DNA of 64,000 bases from Escherichia coli (GTDB taxonomy: Bacteria > Pseudomonadota > Gammaproteobacteria > Enterobacterales > Enterobacteriaceae): NCBI RefSeq assembly GCF_003790525.1, contig NZ_CP033635.1; one strand, written 5' to 3'. Every line of letters starts with the position of its first letter. Position 1 is the first letter of the stretch. Of this stretch, positions 21,001-24,000 are shown in pieces. Position numbers: made by a program.

Positions 21001-24000
21001 ACCAATCGGACCCAGACCCATAGATACGGTCGGGAACTGCCAGAATTCCGGCATCAGTTTCGGGTGCGGATAGGAAGAGAGGCCATTGCCGTGAACTTCC
21101 TGACGGAAGTTATCCAGCTGCTCCTGAGTCAGACGACCTTCCAGGAAAGCACGTGCGTAAACGCCCGGGGAGATGTGGCCCTGGAAGTAAACCAGGTCGC
21201 CGCCATCCTGCTCGTTGCGTGCACGGAAGAAGTGGTTAAAGCACACATCATAAATGGTTGCGGAAGACTGGAAGGACGCCATGTGGCCGCCCAGTTCGAG
21301 GTCTTTTTTCGACGCACGCAGAACCGTCATGATGGCGTTCCAGCGGATAGCTGAACGAATACGGCGTTCCAGTTCCAGATTACCCGGATACTCCGGTTGT
21401 TCTTCAACGGGGATGGTGTTGATGTAGTTGCTGATACCTGTGCCTGCGGCTACGTTGACACCGCCTTTGCGGGCTTCAGCAAGCAGTTGGTCGATCAGAT
21501 ACTGAGCACGCTCAACACCTTCTTCACGGATGACCGATTCGATCGCCTGGAGCCAGTCGCGAGTTTCGATCGGATCCACGTCATTTGGGAAACGTTCTGA
21601 CATGGGTTATTCCTTATCTATCTAATAACGTTGAGTTTTCTGGAACCTGTCCCATTGAACTCTCGCCGGAAAGCTCAATAAGACAGGTTCTACGTTTAGT
21701 TGCCGCGCTTTTATATGCGCTTGATTTACAACATCTTCTGGATAATTTTTACCAGAAAAATCACTAATTCTTTCGTTGCTCCAGACGACGCAGAGAACGC
21801 TCACGGCGGCTCTCTTCACGGCTTCTGTCGAGCAAAATTTCTTCGATAAAGGCCAGATGGCGATGCGATGCTTCGCGCGCTTCTTCCGGCTTACCGGCCA
21901 TAATCGCTTCAAATATGCGGGTGCGGTGACTACTCACCAGCGGCAGCATCTCGCGACGCGAATAGAGCAATTCGAAGTTCTGGCGGACATTCTGGGCCAA
22001 CATCGGCTCCATACACCTTAGCAGATGAAGCAGAACCACATTGTGGGCCGCTTCGGTGACGGCAATCTGATACTGGAGTACGGCGTTTGATTCCGCGTCC
22101 AGATCGCCAGACTGCTGCGCCAGCTCTATAGCGTGGTGGAGTTCACGGATGCGTTCCTTGTCTTCATCGGTACTACGCAGCGCGGCGTAATAAGCGGCGA
22201 TACCTTCCAGGGCGTGTCGTGTTTCGAGCAAGTCATACTGTGATTCAGGATGGTCGGAGAGCAGCTCCACCAGCGGATCGCTGAAGCTTTGCCATAGGCT
22301 GCTCTGGACAAAAGTGCCGCCACCCTGGCGACGAAGCAACAAGCCCTTCGCTTCGAGACGTTGAATCGCCTCACGCAAGGAGGGACGGGAGACGTCAAAC
22401 TGTTTTGCCAGTTCGCGTTCCGGTGGGAGTTTTTCGCCCGGGCGGAGAGTGCCTTCGAGGATCAAAAACTCCAGTTGCTGCTCAATCACATCGGAGAGTT
22501 TTGGTTGGCGGATTTTGCTGTAGGCCATGAGTTCCTGTCTTAAGCCACTTGCCGAAGTCAATTGGTCTTACCAATTTCATGTCTGTGACGCTAAAGTAAC
22601 AAAGTATTCACCTTATGTCCATACAGGTTTTGATTGAAATCATGAAACTGTGCACATTTTAACAACTTGACATATATAACGTTTCAAAGTTGTAACTATG
22701 CACAAATGTTAAATTTACCCACCACGGGTTATGATTAACAGAATTGAAACGAAAAAATATTTCTTCTGAACCGATTCACCAAGCAACAAAACGCATAACA
22801 ATTCAATTATGTGAATTAATATGTAAAATGAATGTTCAGGGAAGGAGAGAAAGGTAGTATTTACCTATGTTTTCTTTTTACATTGCTTATTATCACTGCA
22901 ATCGCCACCGTAACCTTCTCGTAGCGAAAATCATCACTTAACCAGAACGTGATGATTTTCAGGTGACAGATTCTGTTTAGAGTTCATTCTGAATCTTTGA
23001 ACAAAGACAATCCTTGCGAACGCCGCCATTCTTTGACGATTTTCAGGATGTTTTCAGGTTTACCATCTTCTGGGGAATTAGGATAGAAAATGAGATCTCC
23101 CTTTTTAGGATGTTCAGTAATTTTAATGAAATGATCCACTAAGGTATCGAGATATTTTTCTAATTTTTTCCCTTTTAGGGATTTATCTTTGCTAGTTGCA
23201 TTTACTATCTCCTCAAGCATTTCAAGAAATTCACCTTCTGTGTAAAAATATATTTTGTATTTTAAATCATGCATATACATTATCTCCTGTAGTGAATTTC
23301 ATCATGTAGTCGAGGCGTAACAATCCTTTAATTATCAATATCATAAATTTCGCCACCACATTCAATCGCAACACTATGATATATATGGAATTCTTTAACA
23401 ATTTCCTTAGAGCCATAATACCAACCTTCAAGAGGCGCTTTTGCGATTAATCCTTGTTTTATACGTGTTTGGTTACCAGTTGAAAACTGCGCTATCAACT
23501 CCGGATACTGACTCACCTCCAGCCAAAGGGTATCGGTGAAAGCGGGAAATTGATAAAATAACCTAATGAGATTTCAGTATTTTACCTGTTTTTTAAGAGC
23601 ACCCACATTATTATTTTATGTTATTAACATCATCGCATTAGCCAGACGCGATGATGTTCCATATATAGTTTTATTATCTACTTTATTTAGAGTCTTTAAA
23701 CAAGGGTAGCCCCTGTGAACGCCGCCATTCTTTGACAATTTTCAGGATGTTTTCAGGTTCATCATCTCCCTTCTTTGCAGGATAGTAGATAAGATCGCTC
23801 ATCAACGGATGTTGTGTAATTCTGGTAAGATGTTCTTCTAGATCATCCCAATATTTGTCAAGCTCTTCCCCTTTTAATTGAGCGTTATCCCCGGTTGGAT
23901 TTGTAAACTCGCCAAGCAACTCAATGAATTCCCGCTCTGTGTAATCTTCTATTTTATTTTTAAAATCATACATTTAACTATCTCCTGTAATAAATTTCAT

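Follow-up and report, generated by a model that had tools for sequence, protein, structure and literature searches.

Anatomy of the pdhR-proximal end of the usp island in Escherichia coli: a three-layer spacer, a conserved hairpin and an island-linked allele

The imu3-pdhR spacer (22529-22983) in the 64,000-nucleotide stretch of E. coli DNA analysed here (the window) is the pdhR-proximal end of the PAIusp island, and it consists of three layers: the true end of the inserted array (22897-22983), an ancestral aroP-pdhR spacer in a diverged allele (22710-22896), and a core pdhR regulatory region (22529-22709) that does not differ from that of K-12. How far does the island reach towards pdhR, and what happens to transcripts that arrive there? 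The best explanation, which we hold with moderate confidence, combines this layered spacer, visible in the sequence comparisons, with four inferred elements: termination at a weak terminal hairpin, insulation of pdhR by Rho and H-NS, a small effect on pdhR, and an island that recombines as a haplotype.

The strain is E. coli SMS-3-5, an environmental strain of phylogroup F, to whose sequence the window is 100% identical, and the genes are those of the RefSeq annotation. The genes and elements on which the argument depends, from aroP towards pdhR, are these:

26975-28348, + strand: aroP, flanking the array opposite pdhR
26831-26836, - strand: -10 hexamer TGGTAT of aroP promoter P3, located in the sequence (hexamer and role from PMC7142922)
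26763-26799, - strand: left copy of a ~37-bp element, GTGTTGATTTTCTGGATAAAAAAAAAACAATTGTAAG, from the aroP-side alignment
24668-26449, - strand: usp, 593 aa, with Hcp, S-type pyocin and HNH DNase domains (Pfam PF05638, PF06958, PF21431)
24381-24665, - strand: imu1 (Pfam PF01320)
23281-24667, - strand: two more tandem modules of ~698 bp each (repeat families D1-D7, inverted repeat I1, Pfam)
24324-24356 and 23626-23658, - strand: internal hairpins (inverted repeat I1)
23974-24213 and 23328-23516, - strand: usp 3' fragments (PF21431)
23683-23973, - strand: imu2 (Pfam PF01320)
22984-23280, - strand: imu3, the last immunity gene, Colicin_Pyocin family (PF01320, E = 4e-27)
21764-22528, - strand: pdhR, first gene of pdhR-aceEF-lpd (RefSeq), in a region 99.3% identical to K-12

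The array is a member of the published PAIusp family, with usp and imu1-3 between aroP and pdhR. All three Pfam matches of the usp product exceed the curated cut-offs, and its best database match (P0001), at 93% identity, is an E. coli protein that its source calls "type VI secretion tube protein"; locus and domains together point to the name Usp. The island holds three PF01320 ORFs (94, 96 and 98 aa), and RefSeq names the imu3 product 'bacteriocin immunity protein'. As the preliminary description of this region stated, the island lies on the pdhR strand and is oriented towards that gene: usp, imu1, imu2, imu3 and pdhR are all on the - strand. Beyond usp, usp fragments and immunity genes the island encodes nothing, and no integrase or recombinase gene is among its genes; a search for a tRNA attachment site in 15000-32000 found none.

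PAIusp has been described as a small pathogenicity island of uropathogenic E. coli (Rihtar et al. 2020, PMC7142922; Zaw et al. 2013, PMC3685522; Crnigoj et al. 2014, PMC3917654), and the array studied here shares with it the locus, gene content, orientation, lower G+C and the P3 -10 hexamer TGGTAT upstream. The island, its aroP-pdhR location and its promoter are thus already in print, and the present finding changes little in that picture. These three papers cover the aroP-usp side; they leave aside the imu3-pdhR junction and the 3' end of the operon, the hairpins behind the immunity genes, the 37-bp repeat at the flanks and the spacer allele linked to the island. In plan the array resembles the orphan toxin-immunity arrays of CDI, Rhs and T6SS effector loci, where a full-length toxin gene is likewise followed by tandem modules that each pair a truncated toxin 3' fragment with an intact immunity gene. 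It differs from them in its toxin, a pyocin/colicin-type DNase fused to Hcp, and in carrying a conserved hairpin of its own in each module.

The spacer itself contains the following features, again in the direction of pdhR:

22926-22960, - strand: terminal module hairpin, GAAAAUCAUCAC-(11 nt)-GUGAUGAUUUUC, identified by folding; its homologues follow imu1 and imu2
22897-22925, - strand: 29-nt island-specific tail after the hairpin, conserved where the site is occupied in three genera and missing from empty sites (alignments A5, A6)
22860-22896, - strand: right copy of the ~37-bp element, GTGATAATAAGCAATGTAAAAAGAAAACATAGGTAAA, from multi-site alignments
22710-22859, - strand: ancestral aroP-pdhR spacer in a diverged allele linked to the island; it runs collinear with its K-12 counterpart and can be aligned with all empty and occupied sites
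22838-22857, - strand: pyrimidine-rich, G-poor tract CTACCTTTCTCTCCTTCCCT, a possible Rho-utilisation site
22767-22778, unstranded: Cra-like box TGAACCGATTCA (TGAATCGGTTCA toward pdhR), centred at about -187 from the pdhR start site
22529-22709, - strand: core pdhR regulatory region, extending to -123, 100% identical to K-12
22586, - strand: pdhR transcription start, 58 nt from the ATG, located from the published start site and promoter sequence GTATGGACATAAGGTGAATACTTTGTTACTTTAGCGTCA (PMC2759082)
22560-22576, unstranded: PdhR operator AATTGGTCTTACCAATT, +11 to +27, matching the PdhR box AATTGGTnnnACCAATT (PMC7660256)

Where does the island end? The array end was set by a six-way alignment of empty sites (K-12, S. 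enterica) with occupied ones (S. bongori, C. freundii), the usp loci of E. coli and S. bongori having been collected through their proteins. The inserted array stops at 22897-22925, which leaves 369-397 bp to the pdhR ATG (22528) and agrees with the earlier estimate of about 400 bp. This outermost layer is made of 23 nt after imu3, the 12-bp hairpin (22926-22960) and the 29-nt tail; the hairpin had been called the last island element before the pdhR region, and the alignment indeed leaves only the 29-nt tail beyond it. The spacer is of similar length in the three island-bearing loci (455 bp in E. coli, 459 in S. bongori, 460 in C. freundii). An S. enterica island (L019) has neither the terminal hairpin nor the right repeat and ends in a truncated module with a REP-like insert; an island can therefore do without the terminal hairpin.

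Alignment with K-12, which had been expected to fix the insertion boundary, shows near-identity no farther from pdhR than 22709, a point 181 bp before the ATG. Taken at face value, the BLAST result (identity stops at 22718 and restarts at 26805, 180 bp of K-12 being replaced by 4086 bp) would place the boundary at 22709-22718 and make all of 22710-26804 acquired DNA, a reading to which we give very little credence. The stretch 22719-22900 is collinear with the 'replaced' 180 bp of K-12: a global alignment with the K-12 spacer scores 7, against -31 +/- 6 for shuffles, about 6 SD above them. It also aligns with the empty sites of S. enterica and shares with empty sites the invariant Cra-like box and other conserved blocks. 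A version of the island that includes all of 22719-26804 was rejected by the collinearity test and the multi-species alignment. The segment 22710-22896 is therefore ancestral spacer in a diverged allele, not inserted DNA.

The ~37-bp element is single-copy in empty sites and stands once at each side of the island, and since the left copy occupies 26763-26799, the island proper is 22897-26762 (3866 bp). Left and right copies are identical at 23 of 37 positions, and shuffles reached the observed local-alignment score in 39 of 500 cases for E. coli, 16 of 500 for S. bongori and 11 of 500 for C. freundii. A direct repeat with p ~0.02-0.08 by shuffles is suggestive and marginal alone, and no att site is claimed from it.

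The diverged allele gives the spacer a second, less obvious boundary. Its distal part, including the right repeat, matches K-12 at 54.5% identity but the island-bearing loci of C. freundii and S. bongori at 77.8% and 71.4%, whereas the proximal 183 nt of the usp+ E. coli spacer are 100% identical to K-12. The breakpoint between allele-type and species-type sequence lies at 22709/22710 (BLAST runs on to 22718). By these sequence comparisons the distal spacer follows the phylogeny of the island and the proximal spacer that of the species. Among 5426 complete E. coli genomes, 1058 (~20%) carry PAIusp; the 1058 with the usp-type spacer and the 4365 with the K-12 type add up to the 5423 genomes that had any match, and no intermediates between the two types were seen. 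The usp-type spacer adjoins an immunity gene in 40 of 40 of the matches listed, and among them this allele occurs only together with the island. How did such a linkage arise? The haplotype could have been imported into E. coli, or it could be an old polymorphism of which the K-12 type is the derived form. We infer that the island spreads or persists as a haplotype through homologous recombination, with one crossover on the border of the conserved promoter of pdhR (22709/22710).

The DNA between array and pdhR had been characterised as AT-rich and free of a convincing ORF. Both points hold: 22580-22920 has 32.8% G+C, compared with 51.5% for the whole 64 kb window, and a search of the spacer for ORFs down to 20 aa found a longest of 37 aa and none kept in the S. 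bongori or C. freundii spacers. That this AT-rich DNA was acquired and might as such recruit H-NS is not borne out, as the DNA from the hairpin to pdhR has its orthologue in the spacer of the empty K-12 and S. enterica sites. The K-12 counterpart of the spacer is equally AT-rich (G+C of 30.6% vs 30.5%), and any recruitment of H-NS at the spacer is thus not an effect of the island. An Rfam search of 21500-27500 (E <= 1) returned nothing in 22529-22983, its only real match being the tp2 sRNA in the pdhR-aceE spacer. A consensus scan found 10 promoter-like sites where 12.7 were expected, hence no enrichment; within 22529-22983 consensus scanning called no terminator and also missed the real pdhR promoter.

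The hairpin had been placed at 22927-22959 and was found at 22926-22960, starting 23 nt after the imu3 stop codon, as a perfect 12-bp inverted repeat (arms 22960-22949 and 22937-22926) with an 11-nt loop. The - strand RNA folds at -16.8 kcal/mol (z = -3.2), and none of 200 shuffles is as good. Hairpins of this family stand 20-27 nt past the stop codons of 13 immunity genes in 5 of the taxa compared; across these 13 copies 91% of cells are paired and three pairs show double changes, with a covariation score that none of 500 shuffles reaches. One C-G to A-U change, which creates GAAAA...UUUUC, is common to the terminal copies of three genera and counts as a single event because the three terminal hairpins probably share one ancestor. 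Stability (-17.7 kcal/mol) and conservation are both highest in the internal hairpins, whose conservation extends to the loop CUGGCUAA; they have no U-run.

Is the terminal hairpin a terminator, leaky or otherwise? Its stem has 4 G-C pairs in 12, or 3 in 7 in the core stem, which is 7 bp long and folds at -7.5 kcal/mol. Set against the criterion of a G+C-rich stem of at least 5 bp with a 3-8 nt loop, it has an AT-rich stem and a loop of 11 nt. The full 12-bp stem is followed by GCUACGAG, with no U-run; the tail UUUUCGCU follows the 7-bp core only when four A-U pairs open. A consensus terminator scan called none of the three usp-array hairpins. Leaky termination, which the preliminary description had raised as a condition, is therefore plausible in view of the 11-nt loop, the 7-bp core, the conditional U-tail and that missing call. 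Judged from its sequence, the terminal copy is a candidate for no more than a weak, symmetric terminator, or for a 3'-end stem-loop. The closest known parallel is the leaky T1 of the nuclease-colicin operons ColE2 and ColE7, also a stem-loop directly after a Colicin_Pyocin-family immunity gene, where most transcripts halt and few pass (PMC4353708, PMC2896534). The likeness drawn here is one of position after the immunity gene; the usp array has no lysis gene and no ORF after the hairpin, the next gene being pdhR, and its hairpin is repeated per module, with an AT-rich stem, an 11-nt loop and no GGA (CsrA-type) motif in the loop.

Since the internal hairpins have no U-run, termination may not be the primary role of the family. 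The hairpins could act mainly after transcription, protecting the 3' ends of immunity messages or marking processing sites between modules, while Rho and H-NS alone insulate pdhR; we regard this as unlikely, though it deserves more weight than any other alternative. It accords with the stability and conservation of the internal hairpins and their loop CUGGCUAA, with the regular distance of 20-27 nt from each immunity-gene stop, and with the C-rich tract downstream. Yet the U4 tract is specific to the terminal copies and looks terminator-like, the loop is conserved only among close copies, and a role in processing is hypothetical. The inverted repeats might instead work as DNA, as recombination or crossover sites that shuffle toxin-immunity modules and set the island end, and module homology in the terminal copy does end a few nt past the hairpin, in arrays whose module number varies across strains and species. 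This is very improbable: homology between internal modules continues through the hairpin for more than 100 nt, ordinary homologous recombination between the 698-bp repeats would be enough to account for the shuffling, and the island encodes no recombinase. The compensatory changes fit a selected stem and suit DNA and RNA roles alike.

What, then, reaches pdhR? In K-12 the aroP-pdhR region carries aroP promoters P1, P2 and P3 with TyrR and a pdhR promoter with PdhR, CRP, Fnr and Cra, and the divergent aroP and pdhR promoters have been proposed to form a coupled Fnr switch. P3 drives usp and points toward pdhR; it is inducible, has very low activity in K-12, where it has been called transcriptionally non-productive, and is repressed by H-NS at usp (PMC7142922). 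The question of read-through predates the island, because P3 already faces pdhR in island-free K-12. Under the favoured model usp-imu transcripts would start at this TyrR-activated, H-NS-repressed promoter, and most would end or be stabilised at the terminal hairpin, acting as a weak intrinsic terminator by analogy with colicin T1. Those that pass would enter an AT-rich, untranslated stretch of spacer, ~340 nt long and containing a C-rich tract, where Rho and H-NS would probably stop them short of the promoter under PdhR control; pdhR-aceEF-lpd would therefore be little affected overall. In 78-nt windows the C/G ratio reaches 2.3-2.8 at the tract, the rest of the spacer staying at or below 1.3 and for the most part under 1, and C-rich counterparts of the tract occur in all aligned genomes.

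Because the terminal hairpin looks like a weak terminator, read-through into pdhR is plausible. A strong form of the scenario in the preliminary description, in which island transcription runs past the hairpin into the PdhR operator/promoter and the operon, we consider improbable. Array and pdhR are co-directional, the hairpin is weak, P3 is inducible (PMC7142922), and a consensus scan found no canonical terminator on the - strand between 22984 and 22586. Against it stand the very low activity of P3 in K-12 and its repression by H-NS at usp, and the untranslated, AT-rich RNA of ~400 nt that includes a C-rich tract and would be a typical Rho substrate. The PdhR operator, lying downstream of the pdhR start, could also block polymerases that read through, and K-12, without the island, has the same P3-to-pdhR geometry with a P3 that is called non-productive.

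The proximal regulatory elements have kept their form. K-12 identity resumes at 22709, with the breakpoint at -124, so the core promoter and the PdhR operator are untouched; pdhR promoter, start site and operator are 100% identical to those of the K-12 aroP-pdhR region, which also shares the Cra-like box and the P3 -10 hexamer. The differences from K-12 are the spacer from -124 to about -311 of the pdhR start site, a 54%-identical allele, and the separation of the divergent promoter regions by 3.9 kb of island. The Cra-like box lies within the diverged allele. Read toward pdhR, TGAATCGGTTCA fits the Cra consensus gcTGAAtCGaTTCAgc (PMC5888115) at 11 of 12 core positions, and it is the only match to TGAATCGATTCA with at most one mismatch in the 64 kb window. 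The box is invariant in eight loci of four species (alignments A5, A6); one of five E. coli strains in alignment A9, the usp+ strain MS20645, has two changes (TGAATCAGTGCA). Cra is reported to repress pdhR-aceEF-lpd, from a site described as 'downstream of two promoters' (PMC5888115), and 22767-22778 is, by its motif, a candidate Cra operator.

What does the layered junction mean for strains that carry the island? Carriage of PAIusp might, through a foreign distal pdhR upstream allele, a 3.9-kb split of the promoters and partial read-through from P3, rewire control of pyruvate dehydrogenase in extraintestinal pathogenic lineages. This is a long shot; if true, P3 would act as a TyrR-, urea- and temperature-responsive input, the terminal hairpin would be 'deliberately weak', and PDH expression would be coupled to aromatic amino acids and host signals. 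For practical work, 'island boundary' has two senses here, the array end at 22897 and the haplotype end at 22709/22710, and the choice between them alters the answers of PCR typing, pan-genome tools and promoter-fusion designs. The split between distal and proximal phylogenies suggests how an island without an integrase can occupy one site in three genera, Escherichia, Salmonella and Citrobacter: homologous recombination in the promoter regions of aroP and pdhR, which are conserved, may move it or let it persist. In about one fifth of complete E. coli genomes the distal sequence upstream of pdhR is different and the divergent aroP-pdhR region is split, and should usp+ and usp- strains differ in pdhR regulation, this is the place to look.

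The window is 100% identical to SMS-3-5 (NC_010498) and runs in reverse orientation relative to K-12. RefSeq annotates the locus as follows:

lpdA, aceF, aceE and pdhR (pdhR at 21764-22528), minus strand
Three 'bacteriocin immunity protein' genes and two small hypothetical genes, minus strand
24668-26449, minus strand, 593-aa 'TssD' gene (Usp)
aroP, the next gene after the island, plus strand

According to Pfam, the 593-aa protein carries T6SS_HCP, Pyocin_S and Col-Pyo_DNase domains, three small island ORFs belong to the Colicin_Pyocin family and both hypothetical genes contain DNase-domain fragments. 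This small island, usp-imu1-3, is known from uropathogenic E. coli as PAIusp; the literature places it between aroP and pdhR and describes it as transcribed from the divergent, TyrR-activated aroP P3 promoter and repressed by H-NS (PMC7142922). The RefSeq name of Usp, 'type VI secretion system tube protein TssD', reflects its N-terminal Hcp domain and does not convey its bacteriocin/DNase character. The array consists of three tandem modules of ~698 bp each, and its genes and pdhR are indeed co-directional, all on the minus strand. Two identical promoter-like sites (TTTAAA-16 nt-GATAAT; 23673-23700 and 24371-24398, minus strand) overlap the 3' ends of imu2 and imu1 and are directed into the next module; none lies downstream of imu3, and promoter-like sites are not enriched across the region overall.

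Where does the inserted DNA end? BLAST pairs K-12 121902-123500 with window 21120-22718 and K-12 119526-121721 with window 26805-29000, an apparent swap of 4086 bp of the window for 180 bp of K-12; going out from the pdhR ATG, the sequence matches K-12 perfectly for 181 nt, as far as 22709. The K-12 alignment proposed in the preliminary description for fixing the boundary does locate this identity break (22709/22718), but the inserted DNA does not start there: 22719-22900 is collinear with the 'replaced' 180 bp (global score 7 vs -31 +/- 6 for dinucleotide shuffles). Occupied sites were taken from C. freundii, S. bongori and S. enterica, and empty sites from S. enterica. In a six-way alignment, all sequences are collinear from the block GTGATGAnnAGnnnnGTAAAAAGAAA...GTAAA to the pdhR ATG; upstream of it, empty sites continue with the aroP P3 region and occupied sites with a 29-nt tail, then a hairpin, then the last immunity gene. 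This places the end of the inserted array at 22897-22925 (369-397 bp before the pdhR start codon), in agreement with the 'about 400 bp' first estimated, and the hairpin is its last element, as had been supposed. The same ~37-bp block is also present on the aroP side (26763-26799), so that the island proper (22897-26762, 3866 bp) would be flanked by an imperfect target direct repeat; because the copies are identical at just 23 of 37 positions and marginal in shuffle tests, this repeat is suggestive.

A second boundary lies within the spacer. The 22710-22896 allele occurs in 1058 of 5426 complete E. coli genomes, matching whole every time and adjoining an immunity gene in every case among the matches listed, and the K-12-type allele occurs in 4365. 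Together these 5423 are all the genomes matching the pdhR promoter at all, and no intermediate allele was seen, divergent empty sites included.

Pairwise identity of the distal spacer (~22710-22896) and the proximal 183 nt
E. coli usp+ vs K-12: distal 54.5%, proximal 100%
E. coli usp+ vs C. freundii (occupied): distal 77.8%, proximal 88.5%
E. coli usp+ vs S. bongori (occupied): distal 71.4%, proximal 89.1%
S. bongori vs S. enterica: distal 60.5%, proximal 97%

The distal spacer tracks the island and the proximal region tracks the species. The simplest reading is homologous recombination, in which the island and ~190 bp of spacer would be inherited or exchanged as a single haplotype, with the crossover at the border of the strongly conserved pdhR promoter. 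Such a history would account for an integrase-free island sharing one site across several genera: PAIusp occupies the aroP-pdhR site in E. coli, S. bongori, S. enterica, C. freundii and the UBA5654 MAG, and neither an integrase in the island nor a tRNA nearby was found. The stretch 22580-22920 is AT-rich (32.8% G+C vs 51.5% for the window) and lacks a convincing ORF, as described earlier; no ORF exceeds 37 aa, the shorter ones are not conserved in other genera, and Rfam gave no match. The view of this AT-rich DNA as acquired is not supported. AT-richness is not an island property: the diverged allele (30.5% G+C) and its K-12 counterpart (30.6%) are equally AT-rich. In the aroP regulatory region, a patch at 26830-26905 covering the TyrR-box area is strongly diverged from K-12 (K-12 TGTAAACAAATTAATACA; SMS-3-5 CGTAAAGAAATCAATACA), with DNA on either side ~96% identical; it may represent the island-linked haplotype at the aroP end.

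How much of the pdhR control region is affected? The published start site, an A 58 nt from the ATG within GTATGGACATAAGGTGAATACTTTGTTACTTTAGCGTCA (PMC2759082), maps to 22586, which puts the haplotype breakpoint at -124. Everything downstream is identical to K-12, and the PdhR box AATTGGTCTTACCAATT maps to 22560-22576 (+11 to +27). Inside the diverged allele, the 12-mer TGAATCGGTTCA (22767-22778, ~-187) is invariant in the alignments of the compared species and is the sole match to the Cra motif gcTGAAtCGaTTCAgc (PMC5888115) with <=1 mismatch in the 64 kb window, which points to a retained Cra-like box and putative Cra site. A rare usp+ variant, E. coli MS20645, has two changes in this otherwise invariant box (TGAATCAGTGCA). 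A weaker second box, TGAATCGCCTCA (2 mismatches, 22362-22373), lies within the pdhR coding sequence and may be the Cra site that PMC5888115 puts 'downstream of two promoters'. The pdhR-aceE spacer also holds a full-length match to the tp2 sRNA family (RF02030; 103 bits, 21606-21719, plus strand), antisense to the operon, a known K-12 feature.

The terminal hairpin postulated earlier exists: its 12-bp arms (22960-22949 and 22937-22926) pair perfectly around an 11-nt loop and fold at -16.8 kcal/mol (z = -3.2). Homologous stem-loops close all three modules (24324-24356, 23626-23658, 22926-22960), 20-27 nt past the immunity-gene stop codon, and follow immunity genes of S. bongori, S. enterica, C. 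freundii, Superficieibacter HKU1 and UBA5654. Aligning 13 copies gives 91% paired cells (16-53% with the partner slid) and three pairs with changes on both sides, and none of 500 shuffles equals the covariation score of the real alignment, so selection acts on the stem. A C-G to A-U change giving GAAAA...UUUUC, probably a single ancestral event, is common to the terminal copies of E. coli, S. bongori and C. freundii and makes them more terminator-like than internal ones. Judged by standard criteria, however, the hairpin is poorly suited to intrinsic termination: its loop has 11 nt, the core stem has 7 bp (-7.5 kcal/mol), the U-rich tail is exposed only if the A-U pairs melt, and the scan did not call it as a terminator. 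In function it most resembles the leaky T1 terminator of the colicin E2 and E7 operons (PMC4353708), likewise a stem-loop after the immunity gene, although a lysis gene lies downstream of T1 and none follows the island hairpin.

Relatives carry variant arrays. An S. enterica array of four immunity genes closes with a truncated module, beyond which ~185 nt containing a REP-like sequence (GCCTGATGTCGCGCAGCGTTAAGGCCTACGG) lead into the species-type spacer (L019 12488-13220); this right junction has been remodelled. It lacks the terminal hairpin, so the element is not indispensable. In Superficieibacter sp. HKU1 (L020 8001-11697), a usp 82% identical and three immunity genes, the last without the module hairpin, sit at another locus, with a proP-like transporter on one side and an ABC/HlyD/OEP export cluster on the other, so the array is not strictly confined to the interval between aroP and pdhR. 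Superficieibacter sp. 1612_C1 (L012 10001-11460) retains between aroP and pdhR a decayed usp remnant (residues 1-406, frameshift, no immunity genes), whose junction with the conserved pdhR promoter falls close to the position of the breakpoint in E. coli.

Is island transcription reaching pdhR? Read-through is a reasonable hypothesis. It is not island-specific, since P3 is also directed at pdhR in K-12, where it is called non-productive and very weak (PMC7142922). Strong read-through into the pdhR operon is improbable. Downstream of the hairpin, positions 22838-22857 are rich in C and poor in G on the transcribed strand (C/G ratio 2.3-2.8), a candidate Rho-loading site within ~340 nt of untranslated RNA. 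Most likely, transcripts past imu3 would meet the hairpin as a weak terminator or 3'-end stabiliser, and Rho and H-NS would then insulate pdhR, so that little effect of the island on pdhR is expected. The preliminary observation is confirmed and its interpretation partly supported.

The system is already known, and the refinements are modest: a two-tier boundary, an island-linked spacer haplotype, a conserved module hairpin and a retained Cra-like box. In K-12, the divergent aroP and pdhR promoters have been proposed to form a coupled Fnr switch (PMC3974632); the island sets these promoters apart and brings a different sequence at -124 to -311.
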